From Gammaproteobacteria bacterium (GTDB lineage Bacteria > Pseudomonadota > Gammaproteobacteria > JAGOUN01): 64,000 bases of DNA. Where the stretch lies: NCBI GenBank assembly GCA_046290385.1, contig JBKAGM010000004.1:9010-73009 (forward strand). The letters run 5' to 3'. The translations under genes were made by a program, and so were the position numbers. Below the pieces are notes generated by a model. It was not told where the DNA came from and did no database searches. It saw only the letters and a list, made by a program, of their open reading frames with translations. Positions 1 to 63,080 of the stretch are shown piece after piece (positions within the stretch are counted from its first letter, which is position 1; every line of letters starts with the position of its first letter).

Positions 1-355
1 TTAACCCCTCGTAAAAACGTTGCATTACTTTCGACGAAACACCAGGCCAGCCTTTACCTTCAATAAACCTTGGTGTTGTGCCTATGGTAATACATTGGTT
101 AAATCGTTTAGGGTACTGTGATTGTAATTGCATCGCAACAAGTCCACCGAGAGACCAACCAACTAAAATAGATTCTTTAGGAATCAAAGCATAAAAATGT
201 TCTGCTAATGATTCAATTTCAACAACAGTTATATTCGGCAAATCACACGCGATAACATCATAATTTGATTGTAATGAAGCAACTTGCTCATCCCAGATAC
301 TTGCGCTAAATCCCCAACCTGGAAAAAATACTAATGGTTGTTTAAACACAGGCAT
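1..355 (-). CDS. bioH: BioH-like alpha/beta hydrolase (pimeloyl-ACP methyl ester esterase); the C-terminal part lies beyond the window edge
   Basis: Minus-strand translation from the ATG at 355-353 gives [25 protein letters not shown]..., an alpha/beta-hydrolase N-terminus resembling BioH. Its start overlaps the bioF stop, and it closes the bioB-bioF-bioH run. Confidence 0.6.
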   Translation of the reverse strand, partial: MPVFKQPLVFFPGWGFSASIWDEQVASLQSNYDVIACDLPNITVVEIESLAEHFYALIPKESILVGWSLGGLVAMQLQSQYPKRFNQCITIGTTPRFIEGKGWPGVSSKVMQRFYEGL

Positions 356-3885: not shown

Positions 3886-4341
3886 ATGGATATCATTACT
3901 CAATTACATATCTGTGCCGAATTATTCTTAGCTTTTATTCTTGGTGGATTAATCGGTTTCGAACGTGAACGTGCAGGCATTCCTGCTGGTGTGCGCACGT
4001 TTAGTGCAGTAGCGGTAGGCGCTTGCCTGTTTAGCATAGTTTCATCGCATGCTCTCGGTCACTATGATTCTACTCGCATCGCAGCTCAAGTTGCATCGGG
4101 TATGGGTTTTCTTGGCGCTGGTGTTATTTTCAAACATGGTGATTTAATTCGCGGCCTTACTACCGCTGGCGTATTGTGGGCATCTTCTGCAGTCGGTATT
4201 TCAGTTGGTTTTCAACTATATATTGTTGCGGTGTTCACTACTTTTTTATTAGTCTTCATGTTGCATGTCTCAAAATATAAAGCGTGGCGACGTATGATGA
4301 AAAAATCTTATAGAACCACTTCAACCAAGAATGAATTTTAA
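3886..4341 (+). CDS. MgtC/SapB family membrane protein
   Basis: 151 aa, GFERERAG...AGVRTF N-terminal MgtC signature, 4-5 TM helices. Confidence 0.7.
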   Translation: MDIITQLHICAELFLAFILGGLIGFERERAGIPAGVRTFSAVAVGACLFSIVSSHALGHYDSTRIAAQVASGMGFLGAGVIFKHGDLIRGLTTAGVLWASSAVGISVGFQLYIVAVFTTFLLVFMLHVSKYKAWRRMMKKSYRTTSTKNEF

Positions 4342-4569
4342 TTTTGTTCTCTTTCTTCTAACTTAAACCTTCTCTTGCATTTGTAAGTAAATGCTCAACC
4401 TGGTGTAAGTTCTTCCAGATTTATTAAAAATAATGCAATAGGCCTAATATATCTAACCTCATGTTTACATTAGAAAAACTACTTGAATTGCTCGAAATGT
4501 TACAAATCTGTTTTTTAAGGGCACAAAAACCTTATTGAAACCTTAAGAGCTGCATTATAAAATAGCCAC

Positions 4570-4693
4570 ACGTGTTAAGGATAACACTTAGGAAAAGAAT
4601 CAAGGATGATTCGACAAGGACGTCACAAAGCAGGACGCGAATTTTGGGCAAGATGCCCGGGGTAGGGAAAGGAGCAGTTTTACTGCTCCTTTC
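4570..4693 (+). ncRNA. candidate Csr/Rsm-family (CsrB/RsmY/RsmZ-like) CsrA-sequestering small RNA
   Basis: TTGAAA (4535-4540) then N15-17 then TATAAA/TAAAAT (4556-4563) promoter-like hexamers. About 120 nt contain seven GGA motifs, several in ACAAGGAYG context (aaGGAt, taGGAa, caaGGAtg, acaaGGAcg, gcaGGAcg, gGGAaaGGAg). A 7-bp GC hairpin ggagcag-tttta-ctgctcc at 4671-4689 is followed by TTTC. No long ORF. csrA lies about 0.9 kb downstream. Confidence 0.4.
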
Positions 4694-4801
4694 AATAATC
4701 GAAGCAACTTTCAGCAAGTAAGACTGCTACAACTCTAAAATCCTTTCTTTCTCAACAACGCCGCACTATAATGGCTTTTTTAATTATTATAGGGCGCCTA
4801 C

Positions 4802-5410
4802 ATGTCAAGCTTGGTCGATCAGTTTAATAGTTTCGTACAATCCGTGCAAGACAATTTGCACTACTCACTAGGATTCATTGCTATTCTTTTTGCTGTACAA
4901 ATTGTTAATGTCATTTTAAATTATCGACTCAATATTTTTGGAATTTACCCAAGAAAAGTGCCTGGGCTCATCGGCATTCCCGCCTCTCCTTTTTTACATG
5001 GTAGTTTTTCACATTTAATATTTAACTCTATTCCTTTATTTATTCTCTCAACTTTTTTATTAACACGCGGATTTTTAGATTTTCTTTATATAACCGCGTT
5101 AATTATTGTTATTAGCGGTGCTGCCGTATGGCTTTTTGGACGCAAAGCATTACACGTTGGTGCAAGTGGCTTAATCATGGGTTACTGGGGTTATTTAGTC
5201 GTTGATGGAATCATGCATCCTTCATTACTGACTATCTTTTTGATTGTGATCTGCTTTTACTATTTCGGAGGATTTGTCACCAGCTTACTCCCTACGGAAG
5301 AAAAAACTTCTTGGGAAGGACATATCTTTGGACTACTCGCTGGAATCGCAGTAAACTTATACAACCTCGATGCTTGGCTTTATAGCGTAATAGGGAATGT
5401 GCTGAATTAA
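4802..5410 (+). CDS. rhomboid family intramembrane serine protease
   Basis: 202 aa polytopic protein with the GASG catalytic-serine motif (HVGASGLIMGYWGY) and a downstream His in a TM helix (HIFGLLAG). Confidence 0.7.
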   Translation: MSSLVDQFNSFVQSVQDNLHYSLGFIAILFAVQIVNVILNYRLNIFGIYPRKVPGLIGIPASPFLHGSFSHLIFNSIPLFILSTFLLTRGFLDFLYITALIIVISGAAVWLFGRKALHVGASGLIMGYWGYLVVDGIMHPSLLTIFLIVICFYYFGGFVTSLLPTEEKTSWEGHIFGLLAGIAVNLYNLDAWLYSVIGNVLN

Positions 5411-5579: not shown

Positions 5580-5774
5580 CTATTCTATTACAACCTTTTC
5601 TTTTTTTTCTTTTGGTAGTCGTTGCAATATTTCTTTTCTGAAGATAGGGATATTTCTTGGTGCCTGAATACCAATTTTTACCCATCCTCTTGATATACTC
5701 AATATTTTAATTTCTAAGTCGGCGCTTTCACCGCATACGATGGCTTCGCCGGTCTGTCTTGAGAGTACTAACAT
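5580..5774 (-). CDS. csrA: carbon storage regulator CsrA (RNA-binding post-transcriptional regulator)
   Basis: MLVLSRQTGEAIVCG...RGWVKIGIQAPRNIPIFRKEI matches the CsrA fold consensus. The ORF call 5580..5822 starts upstream; the internal Met at 5774 is taken as the true start. It has a Lys/Glu-rich C-terminal tail. Confidence 0.85.
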   Translation of the reverse strand: MLVLSRQTGEAIVCGESADLEIKILSISRGWVKIGIQAPRNIPIFRKEILQRLPKEKKEKVVIE

Positions 5775-5977
5775 CTTGTTCTCCTGAATTATATTTCTCT
5801 CTATTTCCCAGACAGATTTCAAATGACAACCAACAGCAGAATGTTAGGTTTTAAAGGAAGAATTTAGAATTATTATTTTTGTTACTTCCGTTTATGTTTC
5901 CTATGATCGCTCATTTTAATGTCACTTGTAAGATCTCATTTACTATGGTAATTTACTGGGGTAATTTACATTTTTTT

Positions 5978-7312
5978 ATGGAAAAAATCATGGAAAAAGT
6001 TATTTTTCAACAAGTTACATGGGAATCTGTAGCCAAGCGTGTTCGCACCGTCAACCCAGAACTCCATAAAATTATTTGCGACTTAAGCCCAGATGATAGC
6101 TACCGTCTATATACTGGTGAGTATCCTTTTGGCTGTGAGTTTGTGAAAGAAGGAAGATTTCAATTGCCTACAAAAGGTGATGAATTAAGACCGCTCACGG
6201 ATCCAAACATTCCAAAACAAATCCAAGAAGATTTAAGTTATAACGAGGGTACCAATCCTGCGTGTTTACTCTTGAAAAATAGCATTGAAATTTATATGCT
6301 TTCATCTTTATTTCACGTTATTGGTTGGACTATTCCAGAAGGAGGCATTCTTGGAATCTCTCGCGTGTTAGCTGAAAATCCTCAGCATCCACCATTTCTT
6401 TGGAACATCAGCTCTGGAGCACGTTCTTTAATCATGTTGCCAAAAATATCTCGTGCTCGGAATCATCAGCGATTGCGTTCTGAACTAGGTATCAACATTG
6501 AAAAACCTGATTCGATATTTAAACACTGGGAAGTATTTAAAAGTATCGCAAACTGTGGAAAATTTAAACCTTGGTCTTCTAAAATATTATTTTTTTCTAA
6601 AAAATGGTTTGAACGTTTAAAAGATCCCGCGTTTCAAAGTTTTAGATGTTACTTATTAGAAAATAACAGAAAAAGATTTGACTATATCGGCAATATGTAC
6701 ATTTGGGAAATGGTCTTTAGTTTAATATTAAAAAATCGTGATATCAGACCAAGTCTATATACAAACAACTGCGCCAAATATCTTTTTCAGCTTGCAATGG
6801 GAATGACACCAGGATTAGCGCCAGCAGTCAATAATGTTTCTGCCCCTATCAAGATGTTACAAAAAGCATATATAGATATTTACGGGCTGAAAGACTACGT
6901 GCCAACTATTATGCAACCTAATTATTTCAACCCTTATGAACCCTGTGATTCAATATATCATTCTTTACAAACTCCAACATTTTTTGATACTCCTAAAAAG
7001 CGGGACAACAGCAGTTTGATATCCGACCTTTATGACATATATGCTCTATTTAATAAGTATATTTCATACATTAGAACAATGAAACTGAATATTGAAGGAA
7101 GCGCATTACATCAATCAGCACTTAACACACAAGTTGATGCATTACATCCAAGTCCAGAACGATATACCCCCATTAAATCATCTAAAACTATATTAGCAAA
7201 TGATAAAAGATTTAGTCAGTGTCTTTATCCAACAAAATATAATGAAGTTGCTATTAACAGCACCTTACTCAAAGGGTGCTTTCGGTTTTGTTATTATGAA
7301 AACAAAAAATGA
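5978..7312 (+). CDS. hypothetical protein (about 440 aa, no recognisable domain)
   Basis: Long ORF 5879..7312. The start is probably MEKIMEKV at about 5978-5990. No motifs identified by eye. Confidence 0.45.
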   Translation: MEKIMEKVIFQQVTWESVAKRVRTVNPELHKIICDLSPDDSYRLYTGEYPFGCEFVKEGRFQLPTKGDELRPLTDPNIPKQIQEDLSYNEGTNPACLLLKNSIEIYMLSSLFHVIGWTIPEGGILGISRVLAENPQHPPFLWNISSGARSLIMLPKISRARNHQRLRSELGINIEKPDSIFKHWEVFKSIANCGKFKPWSSKILFFSKKWFERLKDPAFQSFRCYLLENNRKRFDYIGNMYIWEMVFSLILKNRDIRPSLYTNNCAKYLFQLAMGMTPGLAPAVNNVSAPIKMLQKAYIDIYGLKDYVPTIMQPNYFNPYEPCDSIYHSLQTPTFFDTPKKRDNSSLISDLYDIYALFNKYISYIRTMKLNIEGSALHQSALNTQVDALHPSPERYTPIKSSKTILANDKRFSQCLYPTKYNEVAINSTLLKGCFRFCYYENKK

Positions 7313-8169: not shown

Positions 8170-9483
8170 ATGGATACTATTGATACAATAATCAAAGGTC
8201 GCTGGCTGGCTACCTGCAATAAGGCGTTTGACGTTTTAGATCGTCATGCGCTCGCAATCAACCATGGCCAAATTATTGATATATTACCTAATGATAAAAT
8301 TGAAGATCTCTATCATGCGCATACGGTTGAAACATTAGATAATCATTGTATCTTGCCAGGTTTTATAAATGCGCATACACACGTTGGTATGAATTATTTG
8401 TGTGGTTTTGCCGATGATCTGCCACTTGATGAGTGGTTAACAAAACATATATGGCCTCTTGAAAAGAAATGGGTAAGCGAAGAATTCGTCCATGATAATG
8501 CCACACATGCTATCGCAGAAATGATTCGTAGTGGAATCACTTGCTTCAACGACATGTATTTTTTTCCAAATGCCACGATCAATGCTGTTGATACATCAGG
8601 TATGCGCGCCATTATTGGATTTGGATTAGTAAACTTTGCTACACGATGGGCAAATAATGTTAACGAAGCAATAGAAGATGGTGTGATGCTCGCAGAAAAA
8701 TACCATGATCATCCACGAATAGATGTTTCTATTGCGCCACATTCTGTCTACTTACTTACACATAAAGAACTTGAGAGAACACATGAAATCGCACTTAAGT
8801 ATAAGTTGAATGTTCATATACATGTTCAAGAAACGAAAAAAGAATTGTATGACCTGTTAGGTAAATATGGAAAAAGTGCGGTTCAAATTTTATATGAAAT
8901 CGGTTTTGGCGAATGTCATTTGCAAGCTGTACATGTCACACATTTGCTAGAAGAAGATTTTGATTTATTAAAAAAGATGAACGCACACATCATTCACTGC
9001 CCAGAGTCCAATATGAAACTCGCCAGTGGATATTGCCCTACTCAAGCGTTCCTCAAAAAAGGCATTAATGTTGGTTTAGGAACAGATTCAACAGCGAGCA
9101 ATAATAATCTTGATATGATGGAAGAAATGCGTTTTGCAAGTCTGTTGGCAAAACTCGAAGATATGAATCCCGTGGCACTAACAGCAAATGATACGCTAAA
9201 GATGGCGACTATAAATGGCGCGAAAGCATTGGGTTTAGAAAAACATATAGGGTCATTAGAAGTTGGGAAACAAGCTGATTTTATTGGCATCCATCTCAAC
9301 GACATCGAAACAACGCCATGCTATAATCCTATTTCACATATTGTTTACGCCGCATCAACAGAGCAGATTTCTGAAGTTTATGTGTCGGGAAAAGCATTAA
9401 TGAAACAACGAAAACTCACCACACTTGATGAAGAAAGCATAATAAAAAAAGCGCTCAACTGGCAAAAGAAACTGAAAAAATAA
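8170..9483 (+). CDS. amidohydrolase of the TRZ/ATZ / MTA-SAH deaminase (MtaD-like) family
   Basis: 437 aa; GFINAHTHVGMN metal-binding HxH motif; HxH...H...H...D amidohydrolase architecture similar to 5-methylthioadenosine/S-adenosylhomocysteine deaminases. Confidence 0.7.
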   Translation: MDTIDTIIKGRWLATCNKAFDVLDRHALAINHGQIIDILPNDKIEDLYHAHTVETLDNHCILPGFINAHTHVGMNYLCGFADDLPLDEWLTKHIWPLEKKWVSEEFVHDNATHAIAEMIRSGITCFNDMYFFPNATINAVDTSGMRAIIGFGLVNFATRWANNVNEAIEDGVMLAEKYHDHPRIDVSIAPHSVYLLTHKELERTHEIALKYKLNVHIHVQETKKELYDLLGKYGKSAVQILYEIGFGECHLQAVHVTHLLEEDFDLLKKMNAHIIHCPESNMKLASGYCPTQAFLKKGINVGLGTDSTASNNNLDMMEEMRFASLLAKLEDMNPVALTANDTLKMATINGAKALGLEKHIGSLEVGKQADFIGIHLNDIETTPCYNPISHIVYAASTEQISEVYVSGKALMKQRKLTTLDEESIIKKALNWQKKLKK

Positions 9484-9514: not shown

Positions 9515-10435
9515 TTATCCAAAAACCGCTTCCAAATTCTTTTGCATCTTAACGTATTTTTCGGATGACATTTTTTGAATATTTTTTATTTTCCAAGATA
9601 AAGCTGGGAAATTTTTCAAATCGAAATCCATAAACTCCCAATCAGGCTGGCTTGCATTAACAGATAATAAAAATTCTTTATCTTTTCTAGAAATTTTTGT
9701 TTTAACTAAATTTACCAATGTCTTTCTCGTGGTATCCAAATCATGATAAGTTATCTCCATATTCGTCATTCCTGAAAACTCCTTAGCATAAGTTTTCGAC
9801 AAATCTAAAAAATTAGGATTAAGCAACTCATGTATGGGTCTTCCGCCACACGCAATATAAACAACAATGGCGCTTAACAAATCGGTACTAACTCCTTCAT
9901 TCTCTAACAGTAATTTAACATCAAATAAATCTCTTGGATGTTGCCTATCGAGTGCTGCGCATATTTTTCCAGCATATAGATCCTCATGCGAAACCACAGG
10001 CATATCTAACACGCTTAATCCAAATAAATTTTCAGCAGAAGAGCATAGTCGTTTATACTCAACTGGAATTAAAACACCACGTACAACATCATTAACCTCA
10101 ATCTTAATTTGCACATGATTAGCGATGATAAATAATTTAATAGCTGTCTTATGGTGTCGATGCTCTTGTATAAGAACTCTTACATTCGGTATATATTTTT
10201 CGACATCATGTTTTATAAGAAAAAGTGATTTTTCAATATTTAGCATTGCCTCTTCTCTTGACTTTTTTTCTAGATATACTAAATCAATATCGACAGACAA
10301 TCGTGGCATTTCTCTAACAAATAAATTAATCGCTGTACCGCCTTTTAAAGCAAAACAAGACTGTTTCGCTACAAATGGCAAGACGCGCAATAGTAACCTG
10401 ACTTGTTGGTAATAATATTCTTCAAATTCATGCAT
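9515..10435 (-). CDS. AbiEii/AbiGii-family nucleotidyltransferase toxin (type IV TA / abortive infection)
   Basis: LKGGTAINLF...RLSVDIDLV (GGTAL NTase motif I) and KICAALDRQHPRDLFDV (RDLYD motif III). The ORF call 9515..10501 begins upstream. The start taken here is the ATG at 10435, which overlaps the upstream gene stop as ATGCATGA. Confidence 0.75.
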   Translation of the reverse strand: MHEFEEYYYQQVRLLLRVLPFVAKQSCFALKGGTAINLFVREMPRLSVDIDLVYLEKKSREEAMLNIEKSLFLIKHDVEKYIPNVRVLIQEHRHHKTAIKLFIIANHVQIKIEVNDVVRGVLIPVEYKRLCSSAENLFGLSVLDMPVVSHEDLYAGKICAALDRQHPRDLFDVKLLLENEGVSTDLLSAIVVYIACGGRPIHELLNPNFLDLSKTYAKEFSGMTNMEITYHDLDTTRKTLVNLVKTKISRKDKEFLLSVNASQPDWEFMDFDLKNFPALSWKIKNIQKMSSEKYVKMQKNLEAVFG

Positions 10436-11234
10436 GAGACTCATCCTTAAATACATCTTCCGGCAAAGATAATTCATGTTTTGGATAATAAACTCCTCCA
10501 CCTGAGATCACGCGCTTTCCTTTGCCAAAGTTTATTTTTTCTAAATTTAAATACTTAAACCAATTATGTCGCTCATGCTCTGAAAAAAGTAAAAATAAAC
10601 GTTTTACTTTGACAGAAGTGCAATGCTCTAATAAATATTGAAAAACGTCAGATCGACAAGAATGTAATCCCTCAAATAATAATTTTGTTTGAGATAATGA
10701 AATTTCCTCAGGAACTAATGCCAATGTTTCTAAGATGGCCCGCTCAACACATGACATCTTGACATGGTATTCGCCGATGGCATGTCCAATCAATGTGTCA
10801 GATAAATACGAAGAAAATAATTTTTTATGCGTCACATAAATAGATGCGTTTTTTGAAAACATTTTTTTAAACCACTTAGGTAAGGTCATACCAACCTGTG
10901 GATGTTGAAAAAGATATAATGGCTCCTTCGCCTGCATCGGCACAAAGTGAGCAAAACCCAAACGCTCTAATGCAGACCGACCTCCTATATGTATAGGTAG
11001 TTGTAAATGCTGTTGTAGTGCATATAACGCACCTTCTGGGCGTATTTCATCACCTTCTCTGGCATAAACACCAGGCGCCAAACGCATTAGCCAGTGGTGC
11101 TTCACATAACTATCAGCAAGTTGACGATAAATACCTTGTTGATTTAATGCGTTTTGCACGGCAATTGTTCCTTTTGGCCAGTGTTTTAATAGATAGTTTA
11201 ATTTTCCATTTTTTTGTCTACTCATACTTGTCAT
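10428..11234 (-). CDS. AbiEi-family antitoxin/transcriptional regulator (type IV TA system)
   Basis: 268 aa; an N-terminal AbiEi_4-like segment (GIYRQL...WLMRLAPGVYA) sits immediately upstream of the AbiEii gene, which is the canonical order. The two genes are translationally coupled. Confidence 0.6.
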   Translation of the reverse strand: MTSMSRQKNGKLNYLLKHWPKGTIAVQNALNQQGIYRQLADSYVKHHWLMRLAPGVYAREGDEIRPEGALYALQQHLQLPIHIGGRSALERLGFAHFVPMQAKEPLYLFQHPQVGMTLPKWFKKMFSKNASIYVTHKKLFSSYLSDTLIGHAIGEYHVKMSCVERAILETLALVPEEISLSQTKLLFEGLHSCRSDVFQYLLEHCTSVKVKRLFLLFSEHERHNWFKYLNLEKINFGKGKRVISGGGVYYPKHELSLPEDVFKDESHA

Positions 11235-11652: not shown

Positions 11653-13188
11653 ATGGCCAATGCATTTACAGAAACAGTCATCACACCTATCAAAGCCATG
11701 CGACTACGCTATGTGCCATTATTAATGATTTATTTTGCATATGGCGCTTCTGTCTTTTCAGGTATAGCTGAAAGCTTTTTTATTAAGGAACGTTTAAATC
11801 TACCCGCACACGCACTTATGATGATTGCTGTTTGGATAAGTATTCCTTGGTCGATAAAAATGGTCTTTGGTCAATTTGTCGATTCCGTGCCTTTTTTAAA
11901 ATCCACACGACGAAGTTATGTGTTTTTTGCTGCAGGCTTGATGGCAATCGGAAGTCTATTGATGGCGGGATTAGCAGGAGAATGGACGTGGATCCTGGCA
12001 ATGGGTTCAGCCAATGCTATATTCATCGTTGCGAGTTTAATTACTGTTTTTGGCGCCGTATTACAAGATGTCGTCGCAGATGCGATCTCTGTCGAAGTCG
12101 TCGATCGTGAAAACCGTAGTGAAGAAGAGATTCGTCATGAACTCGCAATGGTGCAATTATTAGGACGTTTGTCGTTAAGCATCGCTATTTTTTTAGTATC
12201 GGGTCTTGGTGGATGGCTCGCTCAAATTTATTCTTATCAAACAATATTTTTACTGACGCTCATTGTGCCAATCATCTCTGTGACTGGGGCTCTATTCATC
12301 CAAATTGATATCCCACAAATCAAACCCATTAATCGTAAGGTGTTTTTAGGTGGTCTCGCATATGCTGCTTTCGTGACAAGCATGGCTTTTTCACAATTCC
12401 CTGGGCATCAAGAAATTATTCTTGTTGTAAGCTTAATTATCGTGAGCATTTTATTATTCTCAATTTTAGGTGATGTCGATCATGACACACTGAAGAAAAT
12501 CCTTTTTGCAGCTCTCGTAATCTTTATCTATCGAGCTATGCCACCTGTAGGACCTGGATTACAATGGTGGGAAATTGATGTGCTTGGTTTTAATAAGGCT
12601 TTTTTCGGAACGCTTGCGCAAATAGGCTCAGGACTTGCCATTGCTGGAATGTGGTTTTTTGCGAAATGGCTAACAGAAAAGCCTATCGGGTGGATTCTAT
12701 TAATTTTAACACTTGTTAGTTTTATTTTAAGTTTACCTGTGATTGGCATGTATTACGGTTTACACGAGTGGACACAGGCAAATTTCGGATTTGGAGCACA
12801 TACTATTGCACTAGTGGACACTGCGCTCGCTTCACCTTTCGCACAAATGAGCATGGTGCCTATGTTAACGCTTATTGCTATCCATGCACCTCGCGGAAAC
12901 GCAGCAACGTGGTTTGCCTTGATGGCCTCACTCATGAATTTAGCACTCACGACAGGCAACTTAGTTAGCAAATGGTTAAATCATATCTGGGTAGTCACAC
13001 GTGAAGTTAAGGACTCCGCTGGAAATATTGTCACACAAGCAGATTACACGTCCTTAGGTCATTTATTATGGAGTACAACTCTTGTTGGTTTAATTCTTCC
13101 TCTGATCGCTACTTTTCTTTTTCTCCGGCAGGATGTTTTCTCGATTCGCCAACAAACTTCTACGACGACGCCAGCGAATAACAGTTGA
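11653..13188 (+). CDS. BT1/folate-biopterin transporter family MFS membrane protein
   Basis: 511 aa, about 12 TM. IPWSIKMVFGQFVDS matches the PWxIKPxxGxxSD motif of the FBT/BT1 family. Confidence 0.55.
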   Translation: MANAFTETVITPIKAMRLRYVPLLMIYFAYGASVFSGIAESFFIKERLNLPAHALMMIAVWISIPWSIKMVFGQFVDSVPFLKSTRRSYVFFAAGLMAIGSLLMAGLAGEWTWILAMGSANAIFIVASLITVFGAVLQDVVADAISVEVVDRENRSEEEIRHELAMVQLLGRLSLSIAIFLVSGLGGWLAQIYSYQTIFLLTLIVPIISVTGALFIQIDIPQIKPINRKVFLGGLAYAAFVTSMAFSQFPGHQEIILVVSLIIVSILLFSILGDVDHDTLKKILFAALVIFIYRAMPPVGPGLQWWEIDVLGFNKAFFGTLAQIGSGLAIAGMWFFAKWLTEKPIGWILLILTLVSFILSLPVIGMYYGLHEWTQANFGFGAHTIALVDTALASPFAQMSMVPMLTLIAIHAPRGNAATWFALMASLMNLALTTGNLVSKWLNHIWVVTREVKDSAGNIVTQADYTSLGHLLWSTTLVGLILPLIATFLFLRQDVFSIRQQTSTTTPANNS

Positions 13189-13653
13189 AAGATACCACAC
13201 TATTCTCACCAACACATACCCTAATGCACCAGAAATAGCACCTACAACAAAACAGCCTAACAAAAATGGCATGGCAATATTACTAAAATTATTTGAAAAC
13301 CAACCAATCGTACCATCAAACGGGGTTGGTTGAATCTCCAAAAGAAAGCTTCCCACCTTATAAGCAAAGTAAAATAATGGCGCCGCCGTCAGTGGATTCG
13401 TTAATAAGGAGACAATAAAAGTCAATGGCAGATTACTATTAAAAATAATAGCGCATATCGAAGAAAGAACAATCTGTGGCGGAATAGGAATAAACGCGCA
13501 AAATAGCCCAATACCTATCGCTCGAGACACAGAAGCGCGATTTAGACGCCACAAATTAGGCTGATGCAAAGCACGTCCAAAAAACTTCATAAAAGGTTTT
13601 TGATTTATGGACTTATGATCTGGCAAGTATTTTTTTAAAAACTTAATTAACAT
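13090..13653 (-). CDS. DUF2062-family membrane protein
   Basis: RAIGIGLFCAFIPIPPQIVLSSICAIIF resembles the DUF2062 core. The start is taken at the ATG overlapping the upstream stop (TAATG); the ORF call extends to 13728. Its 3' end overlaps the convergent BT1 gene by about 99 nt. Confidence 0.5.
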   Translation of the reverse strand: MLIKFLKKYLPDHKSINQKPFMKFFGRALHQPNLWRLNRASVSRAIGIGLFCAFIPIPPQIVLSSICAIIFNSNLPLTFIVSLLTNPLTAAPLFYFAYKVGSFLLEIQPTPFDGTIGWFSNNFSNIAMPFLLGCFVVGAISGALGYVLVRIVWYLSTVIRWRRRRSLLANRENILPEKKKSSDQRKN

Positions 13654-15002
13654 TAAATGATTTCCAAGCCTCGAAGAAAAATAAATAAAATAGCTAGCGG
13701 CGCTAAAATTCTTATCAGCCAATACCACGTACGAAATTTCAGTGTTTTGGAAGAAAATTTTAGTTCATGAGCAATCAAACTCTTGGTCATAAACCAACCC
13801 ACCAACAACGCCAACAAAAAACCACTAATTGGTAATAAAATGCTAGATGTCACAAAATCTAGTGCTTCAAAAAAATTCTTCCCAAACCATTTCTCTTGTG
13901 CCCAGATATTAAAAGATAAGATTGTGCCCGTGCTTAAGAATAAAATCACAACGCCACAAATAATAGCAGCATGCATTTTTTTTATATGTAATGTTTCTTT
14001 TAGCCAGACAACTGGTGCTTCTAAGAAACCTAAACATGAAGTAAAAGCAGCAAAACCTAGCATGACAAAAAAAAGCGTCGCAAAAAAAGTACCAGAAGGC
14101 ATATGGCTAAAGGATAAAGGCAGTGCTTCAAAAATTAAACCCGCACCTGCCGCTGGTGAAATCCCTTGAGCGAAAACAATGGGAAAAATGATCATTCCTG
14201 CACATAGCGCAATAGTAGTATCCAACAAACAAATTATCACAGACGTACGTGTAATCGAAATATTTTCAGGAAGATAAGCCCCGTACATCGCTACAACACC
14301 TAATGCGATACCTAAACTAAAAAAAGCCTGTCCTAAGGCAACTAAAACTGTCTTACCTGAAACGTGCTGTAACGATGGTTTAAACAAATAGGCCAAGGCA
14401 TGAGAAAATTGACCCGTATGTCCCGCATAAAATAACAACAACAGCAATAACATCACAAAGACTGGAAAAATGAAGACAACAGCACGTTCTAACCCTTTTT
14501 TTACGCCTGCGCCAACGACAATAACCATCCCAATAACAACACAAAAATTAAAAATAAACATTAATCCAGGATGCTGCATTAACGTTTGATAATATCCCCG
14601 GGATTGCGCTTCGGTGATATGTTCAAAATGTCCTGCTGCTGCCAAGTATATATATTCCAATAACCAACCACTGATAACACTGTAGTACGACAAGATGAGA
14701 AAACCGGTTAATATGCCTAGAGCACCTGCACAATACCATAGAGGTCGCATCGGCTTTTTTGAGGCAAATGCGAATGATTTTGCAGGATTATGCCGACCAT
14801 ATCGTCCAACTAAGACTTCACCCATCATTAAAGGAATACCAAGCACTATGACACAAAGTAGATAAAAAAAGACAAAAGTACCGCCTCCATTGGTACCTGT
14901 GATATATGGAAATCGCCAAATATTACCAAGACCAACAGCAGCGCTACCAGCTGCCATAATATAACTTAGTTGAGATTTCCACTGTGGTTTCGTTCGTTCC
15001 AT
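13653..15002 (-). CDS. neurotransmitter:sodium symporter (NSS/SNF) family Na+-dependent transporter
   Basis: GLGNIWRFPY NSS signature near the N-terminus; 449 aa, about 12 TM. Confidence 0.85.
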   Translation of the reverse strand: MERTKPQWKSQLSYIMAAGSAAVGLGNIWRFPYITGTNGGGTFVFFYLLCVIVLGIPLMMGEVLVGRYGRHNPAKSFAFASKKPMRPLWYCAGALGILTGFLILSYYSVISGWLLEYIYLAAAGHFEHITEAQSRGYYQTLMQHPGLMFIFNFCVVIGMVIVVGAGVKKGLERAVVFIFPVFVMLLLLLLFYAGHTGQFSHALAYLFKPSLQHVSGKTVLVALGQAFFSLGIALGVVAMYGAYLPENISITRTSVIICLLDTTIALCAGMIIFPIVFAQGISPAAGAGLIFEALPLSFSHMPSGTFFATLFFVMLGFAAFTSCLGFLEAPVVWLKETLHIKKMHAAIICGVVILFLSTGTILSFNIWAQEKWFGKNFFEALDFVTSSILLPISGFLLALLVGWFMTKSLIAHELKFSSKTLKFRTWYWLIRILAPLAILFIFLRGLEII

Positions 15003-15014
15003 GATCGTCTATTT

Positions 15015-16412
15015 TTAAATATCCCTTTTTAGTCTAACCCCATGATAAATATAAAACAATATAACAGGTGCGATCATAATGACAATGCCACTAGTAAACG
15101 CGATAATGTAATGCATATGTCCACCAACATCTATGGAATCTGGAGGGAAAAATCCAACAATAAGTGTGACAACACAACCGAACAAACCTAACAAACCAAC
15201 CACACATGTTCCAAATTTCCCAAATGGTATAGCAAATGGGCGTTCTTGATCAGGATATTTAAACCGCAGACGAATCGCGCTAACGAACATTAAGAGATAC
15301 ATCAGCATGTATAACTGCGTGCTCAAGTCTGTAAGCAGCCAATATGATGCATTCACCGTTGGCATAAACAAAAAGGCAACACAAATTAAACTCACTAACA
15401 AAGCTTGTATAATAAGGACGTGGGCTGCGACACCATAACTATTTTCTTTGGCAAAATAGTCTGGCATGAAATGATATTTCGCCGCACGTAACAAACCTTT
15501 AGCTGGCGAAATAACCCAGTTAATCATTTCCCCAAAGCTACCTATTAATATCATTATCATTAAAACAGGTAATAAAAATTTCAAATGATATCCAGAGAAA
15601 AACACCCCAAAGGCTTGCATTACACCATCAACGATATTAATTTGATCACGAGGAATAACTATTGCAATAGCGAAAGCGCCCATAATCATGGTGATCAAAA
15701 TAATTAACACAGAATAGAACATTGCCTTTGGAAATGTTTTTTGAGGATTCTCAACCTGCCTTACATGAACGGTTGCCAACTCCATTCCTAAGAATGCTGT
15801 CATAATAGCCGTCAATGAAATCCAGCTTTCCGAATGGCCCATTTTTGGCAGTAATGTATCTAGTTGAAAATGTAAATGTATAGGTTTTCCCATGACTAAC
15901 CACGTCATTGAGAACCCAATAATCAGCAGAACGGGAATAATAAACCCTAAGACACAGCAAATACTGGCAAAGCGTGCCGAAGTCTTTATGCCATACAAAT
16001 TAATGATGGTGATAGCCCAAAATGAAATCAAAATGATGGACACTAGATAAACTCTATTCTCTACCAACGCAGGATCTATCAAAAAGGCAATAGTCCCTGC
16101 AATAAACGATAATATAGTAGGAAACCATACCATCGTATTGATCCACTGCAACCATATTGCTAAAAATCCCACCTTATTGCCAAAGGCCATACGCGTCCAA
16201 TCAAACACGCCGCCGTATTCTGTCCATGCAGAAGAAAGTTCTGCTGAGATAAGCGCAGCGGGAATAAGAAAAACAACCGATGCAAAAATAAAAAAGAAAA
16301 TTAATGTGTCGCCAAACAACGCCGTCGCCGGCAAATTACGAATACTATCGATGGAGACAACGATTAACATCACCAACGCGAATGTAGAGATTTTTTTGGT
16401 AGCAGTTGTCAT
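15015..16412 (-). CDS. APC-superfamily amino acid permease
   Basis: 465 aa, 12 TM, typical APC permease layout. Confidence 0.75.
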   Translation of the reverse strand: MTTATKKISTFALVMLIVVSIDSIRNLPATALFGDTLIFFFIFASVVFLIPAALISAELSSAWTEYGGVFDWTRMAFGNKVGFLAIWLQWINTMVWFPTILSFIAGTIAFLIDPALVENRVYLVSIILISFWAITIINLYGIKTSARFASICCVLGFIIPVLLIIGFSMTWLVMGKPIHLHFQLDTLLPKMGHSESWISLTAIMTAFLGMELATVHVRQVENPQKTFPKAMFYSVLIILITMIMGAFAIAIVIPRDQINIVDGVMQAFGVFFSGYHLKFLLPVLMIMILIGSFGEMINWVISPAKGLLRAAKYHFMPDYFAKENSYGVAAHVLIIQALLVSLICVAFLFMPTVNASYWLLTDLSTQLYMLMYLLMFVSAIRLRFKYPDQERPFAIPFGKFGTCVVGLLGLFGCVVTLIVGFFPPDSIDVGGHMHYIIAFTSGIVIMIAPVILFYIYHGVRLKRDI

Positions 16413-17581
16413 TCCCTTTCCTTTTTCATTGACGGCTTTTTAGGACTGTATGCAAAAGCTGGACTTTGCATAGCATAAAAACGCCGATATTCCTCGCCGA
16501 GCGGTCCCGACAAAAATGCTTGGCTGTTAACTAATTGTATAATACCTTTCGTTGTTAAATCTACATGATACGTATTACGAAAATCATACTCTAGCTGCCA
16601 ATGAGCCGCACTTCCTTTATGCAAAGGCAAATAATATACGCGAAAATCCTCAAGCACACCCGTAACCGGTTCGTAATCGTAAACTTTTATTCCTGGATTA
16701 TTTCTTACAACGGGACTAATTGATGGCGATGTAAATACAACTGATTGATGATTGTTTGGAAGTGATAAAATTGAAAATCCATCGGTATGCACGTGGCCAG
16801 CAAAAAGAGCCTGGATGTTATTTCTATGTTTTTCAATAATACGGAAAAATTCGCGCAAATAATCCTTTTGCCAAAACGTCTCTTTAATTGAGTATTTCGC
16901 ACGTTTGTATTCATTGATTGTTGGCGGAATATGCATAGCAACCCACGCAACTCGATGCAACTTTTTTGCTTCATCAAGAACTTCATTCAACCATTGCAAT
17001 TGGGCCTTTGCGTCTGTTACATGTTGCCTACGATCTGGATCTCTTATGCTAAATAAATTGGCATTCAGCGTGATTAATCTAATATTTGAATTTGGCAAGT
17101 CTCTGTAATAATATCCTGCGTGTTTAAAAGTTTCTATACTATCATGATCAAGAACATGATGTTTTATTTTTGCAGCATTTGATAAAAAATCACCATCAAC
17201 AACTGTCAATGTATTGCCGCCGTAATTATCATGATTACCCATAGTGATATAAATTGGCGTCTCCGGAAAAATGTTTTGAACCGAATTTATTAGTGATTTT
17301 AAAAGGTCATTTATGTAGGCTTTCGATTGATGAATGCCATGAGGATAATAATCACCCAATAATAAAATTTCACTTGGATGTAACTCTCCAGAAGTTTTTA
17401 AATGCCTTAACTCATTTAGTGTCGATTGCCATAAAAAGTTATTTGTTTCATAACGGTATCCTGGATAATGTTTTTCTAGATTAAGCGCATCATAATGAAT
17501 ATCTGTTAACGTTAATAATTGTGAGGCAGAAAATACTTGCGAAAAACAGAAAAAGCATATTATAAATATTATTTTTTTCAT
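16409..17581 (-). CDS. secreted calcineurin-like metallophosphoesterase, acid-sphingomyelinase-like phosphodiesterase type
   Basis: Signal peptide MKKIIFIICFFCFSQVFSAS. Metallophosphoesterase motifs DIHYD, GDYYPHG, GNHDNYG, HIPP and GHVHTDGF, the last resembling the GHTHxDEF of the ASM/SMPDL3 family. Confidence 0.65.
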   Translation of the reverse strand: MKKIIFIICFFCFSQVFSASQLLTLTDIHYDALNLEKHYPGYRYETNNFLWQSTLNELRHLKTSGELHPSEILLLGDYYPHGIHQSKAYINDLLKSLINSVQNIFPETPIYITMGNHDNYGGNTLTVVDGDFLSNAAKIKHHVLDHDSIETFKHAGYYYRDLPNSNIRLITLNANLFSIRDPDRRQHVTDAKAQLQWLNEVLDEAKKLHRVAWVAMHIPPTINEYKRAKYSIKETFWQKDYLREFFRIIEKHRNNIQALFAGHVHTDGFSILSLPNNHQSVVFTSPSISPVVRNNPGIKVYDYEPVTGVLEDFRVYYLPLHKGSAAHWQLEYDFRNTYHVDLTTKGIIQLVNSQAFLSGPLGEEYRRFYAMQSPAFAYSPKKPSMKKERE

Positions 17582-18711
17582 AAAATTTTAAACTCTATGG
17601 TTTCTTCAACATGCTTACGCAAGTATTCAATAAAAGGCGTTCCGCCAGTACCAACGCCAGTAGGATTAGCATCGGATGCTTGACTTTGTTTATGGATATA
17701 CTCGATAGCATAACTTAAATGCGTTTTTCGGAATCTTGCCAAAAGATCAATACAATCATTATAAATTTTTTTTAGCTTCAAATCTCCAGAAAGCACTTGT
17801 TCTCGTACATTCGTATTTTTTTCCACATACTCTAGTAACATTCGATGATTCTTTGGCATGTAACCACGCATTTCCTGCAAATATTTTTGCAACATATCTT
17901 TCTTATGCTCGATACCCAATAGCGCATCACACATAGGAATGATAGTACTTTGCGCGCCAGTTTCACCACGAAATTTTTGAGGCTTCCCTTGATATTCTTC
18001 AACTCCCTCATAAATTAAGCCTTCGGGTAATACGGGATTATTCAACCAACCATGAATATAAGGACGAACACGTTGATAATAAATATATGGGTCACAACGC
18101 TCGGGTATACGATCGAGCGCTTCACAAATAGCGTTAAGGGCGTTTACTATTGGTTGAAGTGCCTCTCCTAATCCTATTTTATTTTCAACAATGATCAATA
18201 CATTCTTTACCAAAGCTTCGGCTTTAGCTTCGATATCGACATGCACCAAAACAAACCATTCCTCATCCTGTCCACCTAAAAAATTTTGCAATAATGCGAT
18301 GTTGCCTAATTCAATTGGTCCTTGTGGGTTTAAGCGCATCCAATTATAAAGTGCGTAAGATGCATAAGATAACACAGGGGGACGCTCTAAATATTTCGCT
18401 ACTTGATACCAAGGCTGTGCTAACACTTTAGGTAGTACATCAACAGCCGGATTTTCACCCCAAACATATGCGTGCCCCAAATACGACAAAATTAGCATTG
18501 CGCGTTGATAATGAGATTTATCATTTAATTGATTAATAGGAAATTCTGGTAACGATTTTATCTTGTTACGTAAAGTCGTGCTCATTAACCATTTTGGTAA
18601 TGTGCGCGCAATATCTTCCCAGGGTTGAAAAATAGAAGGAAGTATTGGAATTGGATCTTGTTTTGGTAGGAATCCACGTGTTAATTCTTCGAATGCCATA
18701 TTGAGCTCCAT
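17578..18711 (-). CDS. indoleamine 2,3-dioxygenase (IDO) family haem dioxygenase homologue
   Basis: Collinear blocks match human IDO1: AYVWGE, PPVLSYASYALYNW, GLIYEG...GETGAQS (vs GGSAGQSS), YLQEMRGYMPKNHR (vs FLQDMRRYMPPAHR), VREQVL, a conserved proximal His in RFRKTHLSYAIEYI, and GTGGT near the C-terminus. Confidence 0.8.
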   Translation of the reverse strand: MELNMAFEELTRGFLPKQDPIPILPSIFQPWEDIARTLPKWLMSTTLRNKIKSLPEFPINQLNDKSHYQRAMLILSYLGHAYVWGENPAVDVLPKVLAQPWYQVAKYLERPPVLSYASYALYNWMRLNPQGPIELGNIALLQNFLGGQDEEWFVLVHVDIEAKAEALVKNVLIIVENKIGLGEALQPIVNALNAICEALDRIPERCDPYIYYQRVRPYIHGWLNNPVLPEGLIYEGVEEYQGKPQKFRGETGAQSTIIPMCDALLGIEHKKDMLQKYLQEMRGYMPKNHRMLLEYVEKNTNVREQVLSGDLKLKKIYNDCIDLLARFRKTHLSYAIEYIHKQSQASDANPTGVGTGGTPFIEYLRKHVEETIEFKIL

Positions 18712-20073: not shown

Positions 20074-20484
20074 TTAGTTCTCTCTAAACTCTTTTTCCTT
20101 AATTTCCATAAACGTTTTGCTATCGACAGAAAAGCGCGCGGTCGGGCGTAGCAACAATCGTTCTATGCCGATCGGCTCACCTGTTTCCTCACAATAGCCA
20201 TAGTTTTCTTCACTAATTTGTTTCAAGGAATAACGTATTTTAGGAAGTAACTTCGTTTCACGTTCGATAATACGCAGTTTAATCATACGCTCTTCTTCAC
20301 GAGATGCTAAATCAACTTCATCAGCGGGTTCATTCGACAGCTCGCTCAATTCTTTGCGTACAACATCGATGTGTGCCATTGTTTCTTTTTCTAGCTCAAG
20401 CAATAGCGTCTTAAAGAACTCCAGTTGTTCTTTATTCATATATTTGCTCTTTGGCATTCTTTTTAATTTGGATATTGTTAACAT
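20074..20484 (-). CDS. DksA/TraR-family RNA-polymerase-binding regulator, cysteine-free variant
   Basis: Coiled-coil tip ADEVDLAS (DxxDxA) and a C-terminal ...IGIERLLLRPTARFSVDSK aligning to the DksA zinc ribbon, with the four Cys replaced. Confidence 0.65.
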   Translation of the reverse strand: MLTISKLKRMPKSKYMNKEQLEFFKTLLLELEKETMAHIDVVRKELSELSNEPADEVDLASREEERMIKLRIIERETKLLPKIRYSLKQISEENYGYCEETGEPIGIERLLLRPTARFSVDSKTFMEIKEKEFREN

Positions 20485-36802: not shown

Positions 36803-37690
36803 ATTAGATGTGTATTAAAACTAAAAAAAGAACCACTGGCAGGGATGTAACAACAAGGACTCGTCATAATAACTTGACCTACATGCCCGACTTTAGCTAG
36901 GAGATGATTTGAGCCAAGCACCTCTACCTTCGCCAAATCATCGAAGAGGAAAAAGTCAGGCCTATTATTACAACGAAGTTGGCCCTGCCAATGATTCTAT
37001 ACACGATATAAAAACAGTTGAGGTGAAATTAAAACTCTAGGTCAAGAGAAGATGGTTAGGAATTTATATTAAAAAAATTTTTAATGCAAGCGGTTTTTTT
37101 AATTTTTACTAATTAAATAAATACATTATCAAAAAAGCCCCCTAAAATATCTTGCTAATTATTACCCTAAATTCTGCTGCAAAATACGAGCTTCTACTTT
37201 CAATATTGAGAATATTAGAAAACAAGCTCTTCAGCAAAGTTTTCTCAACCCTCTTTCCAATCAGATAATAGGATAAACAAGCTACGCCAAGGGCGCATCA
37301 AAAGACTATTATTTATGCATTTTTATTCTAAAAAATAAAACTCAGCCGATAATTTGTGAGATATATCTCAAAATAATGTGGCTTATATCGCTATTTTTGG
37401 GTTAAAAAAATTTACAATTCCTATGTTTATTAAGAAGTTAGCTGTTTCGGGAACAAAGAATGTATTATTTTTGTATATATTCGCTTGTTTGAGTTCATAA
37501 AAAACGCATAATAGATAGTGTTCAGGGAAGACAGCGCACAGCAAAGGATTGCCGCAAAAGGACAGGCAACAAAGGAACGGAAACTGTGCACCCCACACAG
37601 CAATGTGAGGAAAGGAAGCCGATTTATCGACAGGGATAGTCTCCTTTTTTTTGGAGGCTTATCCCCTGGGGACCAACGGTGATAATTTTT

Positions 37691-39016
37691 TCATAAACTT
37701 TCAAATTGCTCCTTGGACAATAATCCATTTACCAGCACAGGATAATGTTCCCTGATATAACCACGAAAAACACTCCGAACAATGCTATGTTCTAATCCAT
37801 TACGATGATATAAGTTCAACATCATTTGATTGTTCTTCTCTTCTAAACTTGAAATAAAACTCCTTTCCATAACTCGCTTTTCTGTATCTGGTAATAATCG
37901 ATATGCTTTCTCTATAAAATCGACAACATAATGCTGATAACGATTCTTTAATGCTTCATCATGCTTTCGTTTCTGTTGAAGCTTCAACATCTCTTTTTCT
38001 TTTTCAAGATATTGTGACTCTAAATGCTGTCGGCTCGATTTCGCTTGATAATCACCGCGTAATGCACTTAGAAAATAAGCCGCGAGATTATTGATTTCTC
38101 CCTTCTTAAAGCTTGATGATTGCTCAACAAATGAAATTTTTTCAGCAATACGCTCTTCTCCAAAGTCATTAAGAAGATCAGCAGCCTGTGTCTTGGTAAA
38201 ACCAAAGGTTTTGAGTTTTGCAATATATGCTATTTGATCTTCAGTGAGTGCGTAGCTCTCCAATTCAGTTTGTCCTATACGATTACGTTTTTCTCGAGCA
38301 CTGAGTTTAAATCGAATTTGTTTAACTTGTCGGCGCTCTTTTTTAATTTCGGGTTCAACAATCAAATCTGAAAACGCATTTACCTCCTCTATTGATTTGT
38401 CGAGAACACGTCTTTTGAAATCTCTAAAAATATCGTATTTACCGGAAGGCACTCCCATTAATTTGCGAAAAACATCGAGTTCAAACCATTTCGTTGACGA
38501 CAACCCTTTGTAGCGAACACAATTTTCATAAAGTGCGAGTCCATAACTAGATTTAAATTTAGACTGAATGATGAGATTAATTTTACCGTATACGGAAGGC
38601 GAGTAAAGCAACTCTTTCATTCTTGGACTATACGCATAATAGCAATTAGGCCCTTTTATGCTTACGCTGGCAATAATTGTACTTGCTGTCCAATCTTCTT
38701 CAGAACAATTATCATTGACTACGTTCCATTCAACAATCGTTGATACAAGCCCACGTAATGCATCTTTTATGACGCCGTGATTATTTCCTCTATACCCAAT
38801 AATCTGACATAATTCCCGGATGGTTATTTGATGCTCTTCAACGTTTTTCAATTCTGGGTAGGCATGGAACAGCAGCGCATTATTAATTTTGCGTTGTAGC
38901 AAAGTCAACATGCCAGAACTATGTATCGCAGCAGTATGTTTTTTTAACTCACCGTTCTTGCGTGCGATCTGGCCTTGCTTACTTTGTGTTGATTTTATCA
39001 TTCCTTGATCCTGCAT
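37691..39016 (-). CDS. iteron-type plasmid replication initiator protein (Rep_3-like)
   Basis: 441 aa. The N-terminal region resembles Rep_3 initiators, and the gene lies immediately downstream of five iterons. The C-terminus is a Lys/Glu-rich coiled region. Confidence 0.55.
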   Translation of the reverse strand: MQDQGMIKSTQSKQGQIARKNGELKKHTAAIHSSGMLTLLQRKINNALLFHAYPELKNVEEHQITIRELCQIIGYRGNNHGVIKDALRGLVSTIVEWNVVNDNCSEEDWTASTIIASVSIKGPNCYYAYSPRMKELLYSPSVYGKINLIIQSKFKSSYGLALYENCVRYKGLSSTKWFELDVFRKLMGVPSGKYDIFRDFKRRVLDKSIEEVNAFSDLIVEPEIKKERRQVKQIRFKLSAREKRNRIGQTELESYALTEDQIAYIAKLKTFGFTKTQAADLLNDFGEERIAEKISFVEQSSSFKKGEINNLAAYFLSALRGDYQAKSSRQHLESQYLEKEKEMLKLQQKRKHDEALKNRYQHYVVDFIEKAYRLLPDTEKRVMERSFISSLEEKNNQMMLNLYHRNGLEHSIVRSVFRGYIREHYPVLVNGLLSKEQFESL

Positions 39017-39024
39017 TGACTACT

Positions 39025-39132
39025 CCCACAAACGTCACATCTTGTCCCATAAGTGTCACACGACTATCCCATAAGTGTCACACTTTTTTCCCATAAGTGT
39101 CACAAAACATCCCACAGATGTCACACTTAACA
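39025..39132. repeat. five direct 21-22 bp iterons (candidate plasmid-type origin / Rep binding sites)
   Basis: Units start at 39025, 39046, 39068, 39090 and 39111, with core cccaYaaRtgtcaca. Three units are identical (cccataagtgtcaca). They are followed by an AT-rich stretch at 39133-39300. Confidence 0.7.
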
Positions 39133-39305
39133 TAATTTTATCTTCTATTTTCAACAGCTTAGCTTCCCTAAAACTATTAAAACATTTAAAAACATTACAC
39201 AACATCAAGTGTTGTTATTTATTTGTAATATCATTTATCATAACTTTGATTTTATTAGAATTCAAGGTATATAATATATCATGCTATATGGTAATACATT
39301 AAGGA

Positions 39306-40178
39306 TTGTGTCATATGAAAGTTATTGCTGCAGTAAGTAATAAGGGAGGCGTTGGAAAAACAAAACTCAGCGCATTATTAACAGAATATTTAGCGAAGTA
39401 TACAAAGAAAAAAGTTTTAGCTATCGATTTTGATCCGCAATGTAATTTTTCTTTGCGTTACTTGCCTATGGAGATGGATCCAGCAGCCCCGGAAGGTTTA
39501 ATGCCACCTATTCATCCCGATTACAACCCAGACGAAGATGAAGAGTGGGATGGCCGCAGCAGTATTGCAGATATTTTCTTTGGACAAGGTGTTGTTCCAT
39601 ATCCAACTTTTATCAAAAATGTAGATATTGCGCCTGGACATGCTGAACGTTTGTTAGCCGCAGAAATGGTGCGCAGAAGTGAAGTTGCTGAAAGAATTCA
39701 CAGGCAGCTTAAAATATTTTTAAATTCCCCAGATTTGCAAGAAGCGTATGATGTCGTTATTGTGGACACCGCTCCTTCAAAAGGACCATTGACTGTAAGC
39801 GTAATTAAGGCGGCCACCGATATTGTTATTCCTTCAGTAATGGAAGAACAACCTATTCAGGGGATATACGGTATGTTACAACTTTGGATGCAGGAATCAT
39901 TTAATCGAAAATCCGATAACCCATTGAATTTAGTAGGAATATTGCCAAACATGTTTAAAAACACAACGCTACATCGCGATATGTATGAGTCGTTGTTGAG
40001 TAATGAGGGTATTGGTAAGTATATGATGCCAATGAAAATAAGCCAGCGGATTGTATATGCTGAAATTGATTCAGAGGATGCAAGCCCAAGAACGATTTTT
40101 GATTTACCTGATAATCACATTGCGAAACGTGAAGCGGTAACTGTTTGTGAATACATCATGAAGGAGGTGTTTGGATGA
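39306..40178 (+). CDS. parA: ParA/Soj-family partition ATPase (plasmid type)
   Basis: Deviant Walker A KGGVGKT; the start is probably MKVIAAV at 39318; insertion-bearing relative to chromosomal Soj. Confidence 0.85.
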   Translation: MCHMKVIAAVSNKGGVGKTKLSALLTEYLAKYTKKKVLAIDFDPQCNFSLRYLPMEMDPAAPEGLMPPIHPDYNPDEDEEWDGRSSIADIFFGQGVVPYPTFIKNVDIAPGHAERLLAAEMVRRSEVAERIHRQLKIFLNSPDLQEAYDVVIVDTAPSKGPLTVSVIKAATDIVIPSVMEEQPIQGIYGMLQLWMQESFNRKSDNPLNLVGILPNMFKNTTLHRDMYESLLSNEGIGKYMMPMKISQRIVYAEIDSEDASPRTIFDLPDNHIAKREAVTVCEYIMKEVFG

Positions 40179-62904: not shown

Positions 62905-63080
62905 TGTTTATTATTGGGTGATAGTGAGATTTTCTCTTACTATCATCCACTTAAAATTTTTTTAAAAAAACCTCTTCACATTTCAATAATTTTTGTCTAG
63001 AATACTCAAATACCGCAAGGGGCGGTATGACATCTCTTCTAGGAGATGTACCGAGACAAGGATCAGTCGGAGGTGCTATA

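Follow-up and report, generated by a model that had tools for sequence, protein, structure and literature searches.

We found that positions 4570-4696 on the plus strand of the window (the whole 64,000-nucleotide stretch of DNA that was analysed) probably form a stand-alone gene for a predicted Csr/Rsm-type sRNA of about 125 nt, i.e., a sponge for CsrA. The ends are approximate, and the prediction draws on the fold, on the comparison with a homologue and on matches to one Rfam clan. An earlier note on this DNA had read the region as a CsrB/RsmY/RsmZ-type sRNA, and this reading was supported by the density of the motifs, the fold, the homologue, sub-threshold matches to the Rfam clan, and a palindromic box located upstream. 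The candidate, hereafter candidate 1, is intergenic: it lies in the 460 bp between the stop of mgtC (3886-4341; Pfam MgtC) at position 4341 and the start of a rhomboid-family gene (4802-5410) at position 4802. The gap had been described as ORF-free, with csrA as the next-but-one gene, and both statements held, csrA being located at 5580-5774 on the minus strand (Pfam CsrA, 68 bits). An element in the same position was found in L019, a JGI contig that encodes the sole close relative of this MgtC found (66% identical; the next-best MgtC, in a search among 5.8 billion proteins, was 51% identical). The ORF of 61 aa on the minus strand (4532-4717), previously taken for a shadow, indeed behaved as one, and so did an ORF of 49 aa also present in the gap on the plus strand. 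Since the ORFs found locally in L019 are unrelated, and the alignment of the two loci contains indels of 1, 2 and 4 nt that break the frame, there is no conserved coding frame in the sRNA stretch.

The sigma-70-like hexamers reported upstream of the candidate were found as TTGAAA (4535), 17 nt and TAAAAT (4563), on the plus strand, and this predicted promoter agreed with the consensus at 10 of 12 positions. Shuffled sequences yielded about equally many such sites, and by itself the match is therefore no proof of a promoter. In L019, the sequence AACCTTRTTG, which covers the -35 hexamer, was kept. All seven of the GGA motifs counted before were present, with starts at 4579, 4591, 4604, 4618, 4633, 4666 and 4671, and they included the two near-consensus CsrA sites, caaGGAtga and acaaGGAcgu. 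In the predicted fold of the plus strand, the GGA motifs were located in hairpin loops or linkers. Hairpin H1 (4572-4587) carries an AGGA loop and is separated from H2 (4597-4612; loop AGGA) by a single-stranded linker with the GGA at 4591; then come H3 (4613-4624; loop AAGGAC), the weak H4 (4630-4638; loop AGGAC) and H5 (4641-4663), whose loop is AGA, with GGA in L019. The GGA at 4666 follows H5 and precedes the terminator hairpin (4667-4693; GGAGCAG-UUUUA-CUGCUCC, with an extended stem of -19.8 kcal/mol). The minimum free energy of candidate 1 was -45.4 kcal/mol, with a z-score of -6.4 when compared with shuffled sequences. As for the expectation that the GGA motifs would fold into loops, it was borne out for four of the seven, with unpaired probabilities of at least 0.89, but the remaining three were engaged in pairing, in part or in full, and one of these belongs to the terminator stem.

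The abundance of GGA was then compared with randomised sequence and with the rest of the window. The stretch contains seven GGA, against 3.2 ± 1.5 in mononucleotide shuffles (P = 0.016) and 4.4 ± 1.5 in dinucleotide shuffles (P = 0.06). When the stretch itself is shuffled, the excess is marginal. At the scale of the window, the GGA and ARGGA density made candidate 1 a strong outlier. Its 130 nt contained six AGGA and five ARGGA, whereas the window means were 0.41 and 0.19, respectively. When both strands (128 kb) were scanned for AGGA, ARGGA, ANGGA and AAGGA, the top two peaks were candidate 1 and a stretch at about 37.5 kb, with five and six ARGGA, respectively, and the next-best stretch showed two to three.

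The GGA-rich, sRNA-like element of L019 lies directly downstream of mgtC. The MTA/SAH deaminase of the window (8170-9483) is just 49% identical to its L019 orthologue, indicating that the two genomes are distant. Between the two loci, the identity was 72% in the upstream box, 69% in the -35 area (AACCTTRTTG) and 55% in the sRNA body, and it fell to 25-37% in the surrounding spacer. Hairpins H1 to H5 and the terminator hairpin fold equivalently in both copies, with the terminator placed after H5 in each. H1 is GUGUUA-AGGA-UAACAC in the window and CGUCA-AGGA-UGACG in L019, and the linker is UUAGGA and UUAUGGA, respectively. For H2, the sequences are GAAUCA-AGGA-UGAUUC and GGUAAC-AAGGAUC-GUUAUC; for H3, GAC-AAGGAC-GUC and CGACAU-GGA-AUGUUG; for H4, GC-AGGAC-GC and GGCCA-GGA-UGGCU; and for H5, GGGCA-AGA-UGCCC and GAACA-GGA-UGUUC. 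Therefore, GGA occupies the loops of H1 to H4 in both copies, and that of H5 in L019 only. RNAalifold returned four shared helices, in which 21 of 21 consensus pairs were standard in both sequences and six pairs had changed on both sides, figures that come from two sequences and from a structure derived from those same two. Control alignments in which the 3' partners were slid gave zero to two two-sided changes and 33-52% pairing. Two more swaps were seen in H2, which MAFFT had misaligned (GAAUC/GAUUC against GUAAC/GUUAU). These compensatory changes are good but not decisive evidence that the predicted hairpins are conserved. It was also observed that the H5 loop reads AGA in the window (4651-4653) and GGA in L019 (4781-4783), and that the stem is kept by exchanged pairs (GGGC/GCCC and GAAC/GUUC); one CsrA site seems to have decayed in the window while its stem remained.

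The stretch had been said to end in a GC hairpin plus a short U-tract. The hairpin was confirmed, but the U-tract is weak, as just UUUC follows the stem, and for this reason the window copy fails the terminator rule of the scanner. The L019 element, on the other hand, has a canonical intrinsic terminator at its end, GGGGUGGC-UUUU-GCUACCCC plus UUUAUUUUUU, with the U-rich tail given as TATTTTTT. After it comes the MTA/SAH deaminase gene in convergent orientation, with no co-oriented gene downstream; in the window only, a block of rhomboid, csrA, hypothetical and methyltransferase genes separates the sRNA from the deaminase. The canonical terminator and the convergent neighbour suggest that the L019 element is an independent transcript. 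This bears on the possibility that candidate 1 instead belongs to the rhomboid gene (4802-5410) as a 5' leader responsive to CsrA, in which a weak terminator would be read through and the GGA hairpins would control rhomboid expression. The failed terminator scan, with UUUC alone after the stem, is in keeping with such a leader, and so is the co-oriented rhomboid gene, which starts 105 nt downstream. However, no gene is available to be led by the terminated element of L019, the rhomboid start is preceded, downstream of the hairpin, by a perfect TATAAT (4767-4772), and such an upstream element was found in none of 17 rhomboid-anchored relatives. We therefore consider the leader very unlikely and a stand-alone sRNA gene the better reading.

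A LetA/GacA-type palindrome had been proposed as something to look for upstream, and one was found, TGTAAG-N6-CTCAAC, a predicted regulator-binding site some 180 bp upstream and away from the promoter. This box, TGTAAGTAAATGCTCAAC, lies at 4382-4399 on the plus strand, with its centre at about -180 from the predicted start. The box of L019, TGTACGTTATTTCTCAAA (L019 positions 4521-4538), is centred at about -168 from the predicted start, and the GGA-rich stretch at 37.5 kb, hereafter candidate 2, is preceded on the plus strand by TGTGAGATATATCTCAAA (37355-37372), a near-perfect palindrome (inverted repeat I16) centred at about -156. The three upstream regions have TGTRNG-N6-CTCAAM in common, which is a putative regulator site. 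The shorter form TGTNNG-N6-CTCAA occurs exactly twice in the window when both strands are counted (0.45 expected), each time preceding a GGA-rich candidate by 155-180 bp on the strand of that candidate, and once at the corresponding place in L019, although the pattern was derived post hoc from the same three sequences on which it was counted. In E. coli MG1655, the centre of the UvrY box of csrB, TGTGAGAGATCTCTTACA, lies 183 bp before the 5' end annotated for csrB. Taken in the opposite orientation (TGTAAG..CTCACA), this box is matched by each of the three boxes at 10 of 12 half-site positions, and the candidate 2 box is identical to it at 14 of 18 positions. The sites upstream of rsmY and rsmZ in Pseudomonas are TGTAAGCATTCTCTTACA and TGTAAGCATTCGCTTACT (PMC4353343). 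In addition, a third half-site was observed 0-4 nt downstream of each 18-bp box: TGTAAG at 4404-4409 and TGTGGC at 37377-37382 in the window, and TGTACG at 4539-4544 in L019. This extra half-site suggests that more than one regulator dimer may bind, or that the site is an extended one. Among the window ORFs scanned, no gene for a LetA/GacA-type regulator was found.

Candidate 2 is a GGA-rich sRNA candidate at about 37519-37665 on the plus strand, with nine GGA and the upstream box TGTGAG-N6-CTCAAA. It lies in an ORF-free gap of 890 bp, is the top ARGGA peak of the window, and is preceded by a weak predicted promoter on the same strand (TTGTTT-16-CATAAT, 37485-37512). Six of its nine GGA were accessible, and none of 300 shuffles reached six. 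A hairpin whose loop is U8 lies in its 3' region (37633-37665), and the end of the RNA is approximate. Candidate 2 had no match in Rfam, no sequence similarity to candidate 1 and no match to the covariance model R1. Iterons were considered as an explanation of candidate 2 and rejected, as no repeat family was found. By analogy, two candidate sponges unrelated in sequence and placed under one box correspond to the RsmY/RsmZ pattern. As a separate observation, candidate 2 converges on the rep gene of a plasmid-type replication and partition module (37691-41194) composed of a Rep3 initiator, ParA and a ParB-like gene. The initiator is 44% identical to CBUA0039 of the Coxiella burnetii plasmid QpH1. 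The remainder of the window looks chromosomal, with carAB, pyrBC, serA, lexA, clpB and cydAB, and possible identities of the contig are a chromid, an integrated plasmid and a very large plasmid.

No family reached its gathering score when the whole window was scanned with Rfam. Covariance models of the Csr/Rsm clan, which had been suggested as a check, did align with both copies over their full length, but all scores were below the curated cut-offs of 44-56. The window copy matched rsmX (RF02144) with 24.1 bits (E = 5e-3; gathering score 56) and PrrB_RsmZ (RF00166) with 15.5 bits (E = 0.29; gathering score 44), and the L019 copy matched PrrB_RsmZ (RF00166) with 24.4 bits (E = 5.6e-4; gathering score 44). 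The three matches were full-length global alignments, and further models of clan CL00106 overlapped them. Both copies independently picked models of the Csr/Rsm clan, and of that clan only, out of 4227 Rfam families. Neither copy reached the gathering score of RF00166 or RF02144; the predicted design of candidate 1 is that of the Rsm RNAs, without demonstrable membership in the Pseudomonas families. The criteria proposed by Kulkarni et al. 2006 for such RNAs are an intergenic location, richness in AGGA/ARGGA, a Rho-independent terminator, unpaired GGA and a conserved upstream site of the GacA/UvrY type (PMC1488887). These five sequence features were found here, except that the terminator is complete in L019 only, the window copy having the strong hairpin with just a UUUC tail.

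A real sRNA could also work mainly by base-pairing with mRNAs, either with a dual function like that of CbsR12 or in a role tied to mgtC, and it would then titrate CsrA little or not at all. Two otherwise distant genomes keep the linkage to mgtC, and CbsR12 provides a precedent, as it binds CsrA-2 and targets carA, metK and cvpD (bioRxiv 10.1101/679134). Nevertheless, the conserved positions are the GGA loops and the stems, with no long single-stranded seed, and the upstream box and the Rfam clan matches point specifically to the Gac/Csr circuit. We regard this alternative as improbable, to about the same degree as the rhomboid leader. That the stretch is a chance GGA- and hairpin-rich spacer, or one of the two small ORFs, is largely refuted and scarcely probable: the dinucleotide shuffles leave room for the former and both ORFs exist mechanically, but the homologue has kept the GGA positions and shows compensatory changes, the stretch stands out in the motif scan of the whole window, and the frame-breaking indels and unrelated L019 ORFs speak against coding. 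A CsrA sponge remains the preferred reading.

The genome carries a CsrA-family gene near candidate 1, the csrA paralogue at 5580-5774 on the minus strand, which scored 68.6 bits with TIGR00202 (cut-off 70.1). Aligned with solved CsrA/RsmA structures, its product showed a 2-aa insertion and the replacement of R7 by Q, and retained L2, L4, R6 and the arginine of the HREEI motif. The paralogue is thus divergent, although its product genuinely belongs to the CsrA fold. Besides the query itself, no relatives were found among 5.8 billion proteins at E <= 1e-8, a strict limit, so that this result speaks to close relatives only. Several CsrA paralogues are usual in Legionella (PMC4471563, PMC5338858). 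The earlier note had counted the proximity of csrA (about 0.9 kb) in favour of the sRNA; the location is correct, but it is not conserved, as the 4 kb or so flanking the L019 sRNA on each side contain no called csrA. Because of this, and because the neighbouring csrA is a divergent paralogue, we take the proximity as weak evidence, and the paralogue is a possible but unproven protein partner of the candidate 1 sRNA. One can also conceive of a more elaborate arrangement, in which the sRNA and the orphan paralogue would be a dedicated pair, with the paralogue titrated in preference to the housekeeping CsrA. Candidate 2, beside its QpH1-like replication module, would be part of that accessory circuit, and the whole would amount to a Csr sub-network, mobile or specific to the lineage, with a single GacA-type box in common; we think this arrangement unlikely.

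With the steps drawn from established Gac/Csr biology, we infer that candidate 1 would work as follows. A response regulator of the GacA/UvrY/LetA family would bind the TGTAAG-N6-CTCAAC box about 180 bp upstream, and the bound regulator would activate the TTGAAA/TAAAAT promoter. In the resulting transcript, short hairpins would form one after another, with A(N)GGA in their loops and more GGA in the single-stranded linkers. Each CsrA dimer would clamp two sites, and five to seven A(N)GGA sites would thus accommodate roughly two to three dimers per RNA. Sequestration of CsrA would then relieve its repression, or activation, of target mRNAs.

When compared with known systems, candidate 1 is like the Coxiella burnetii RNAs CbsR12 and CbsR1, proposed RsmY/Z equivalents in the Coxiellaceae with four to five ANGGA sites, a likeness that was drawn by description only (bioRxiv 10.1101/679134). 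A putative LetA site has been reported for cbsR1, and the classical RsmY/Z were described as not readily discernible in Coxiella (bioRxiv 10.1101/679134). Unlike candidate 1, CbsR12 is about 200 nt long, undergoes processing by RNase III and pairs with mRNAs as well (bioRxiv 10.1101/679134). The LetAS-RsmYZ-CsrA cascade of Legionella pneumophila, likened here by description, also employs small sponges, RsmY and RsmZ (and RsmX), with two or more per genome; the hosts are related, with Coxiellaceae and Berkiella as relatives of the present one at the level of the order, several CsrA paralogues are present in Legionella (PMC5338858, PMC4471563), and control by the GacA family would be expected. 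The RsmZ, RsmX and RsmY of Pseudomonas (RF00166, RF02144 and RF00195; clan CL00106) are similar in size (about 110-135 nt) and share the series of small hairpins that carry A(N)GGA in their loops, the single-stranded GGA and, after these, the terminator hairpin; candidate 1 can be aligned globally, over its entire length, to RF00166 and RF02144, and rsmY and rsmZ also have an upstream palindrome of the TGTAAG-N6 type (PMC4353343). The differences are the scores of 15-24 bits, far under the gathering values of 44-56, the right half of the box, which is CTCAAM here and CTTACA in Pseudomonas, and the host, here a low-GC, Legionellales-like uncultured bacterium. With E. coli CsrB, candidate 1 has in common the sponge logic and a palindromic box far upstream (-183 there, and about -156 to -180 here), but CsrB is 369 nt long with about 18-22 GGA sites, whereas about 125 nt and five to seven sites are predicted here.

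Csr/Rsm sponges evolve too fast for homology searches to catch. Further relatives were looked for by synteny and by pattern. Anchoring on the rhomboid gene in 185,579 species genomes gave 17 loci with 40-57% identity (Coxiellaceae, Berkiella and other MAGs); the element was present in none of them, and the GGA-rich peaks at these loci were coding. In the MgtC homologues with 49-58% identity (L020-L034), mgtC was operonic and had no downstream gap. With the MTA/SAH deaminase as the anchor, the best non-self match was 52% identical, and the element was absent from the two contigs inspected. A metagenome scan with a pattern of 20 specified bases common to the window and L019 gave 10 matches, all of them coding, leader or unrelated. 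The covariance model R1, run over 302 kb of DNA, recovered its two input sequences only, and blastn of the locus against plasmids gave no match. One unrelated, GC-rich metagenome contig (L038), which came up solely through its match to the 20-base pattern, showed four AAGGA in about 55 nt followed by a T-run (267-330, plus strand), with coding-like flanks; another organism may encode an Rsm-like RNA here.

The nearest rhomboid homologues, 40-57% identical, belong to Coxiellaceae, Berkiella and Legionellales MAGs, and the best non-self matches of the deaminase (52%) and MgtC (66%) show that the lineage is poorly sampled. Judged from these protein similarities, the host appears to be an uncultured Legionella/Coxiella-like bacterium of a Legionellales-like lineage. 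Elsewhere in the window, the region 11653-18711 encodes a BT1 folate/biopterin transporter, an SNF sodium:neurotransmitter symporter, an amino-acid permease, a metallophosphoesterase and a homologue of indoleamine 2,3-dioxygenase, a cluster of eukaryote-like or host-interaction type that is consistent with an intracellular, Legionellales-like lifestyle. Three large ORFs, at 5879-7312, 47606-49594 and 52902-54950 (477, 662 and 682 aa, respectively), had no Pfam match, and the first had no NCBIfam match either; their products may be lineage-specific or effector proteins. At 9515-11234 on the minus strand there is an AbiEi/AbiEii type IV toxin-antitoxin pair, and two DksA paralogues were encoded within the same 64 kb, at 20074-20484 (minus strand) and 62993-63514 (plus strand).

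The understanding of the Gac-Rsm-CsrA circuit is unchanged by this work, since candidate 1 would be another example of the well-known CsrB/RsmZ kind and is not conceptually new. Its value lies in being a sponge candidate that has an upstream box and is backed by a distant relative, from a Legionellales-like lineage that is deep and uncultured. The window and L019 copies give a starting alignment and a covariance model, and these may serve as a seed for Rsm RNAs in Coxiellaceae-like bacteria. Moreover, the csrB-style layout, with a predicted UvrY/GacA site far upstream at about -180, would extend to this Legionellales-like group.
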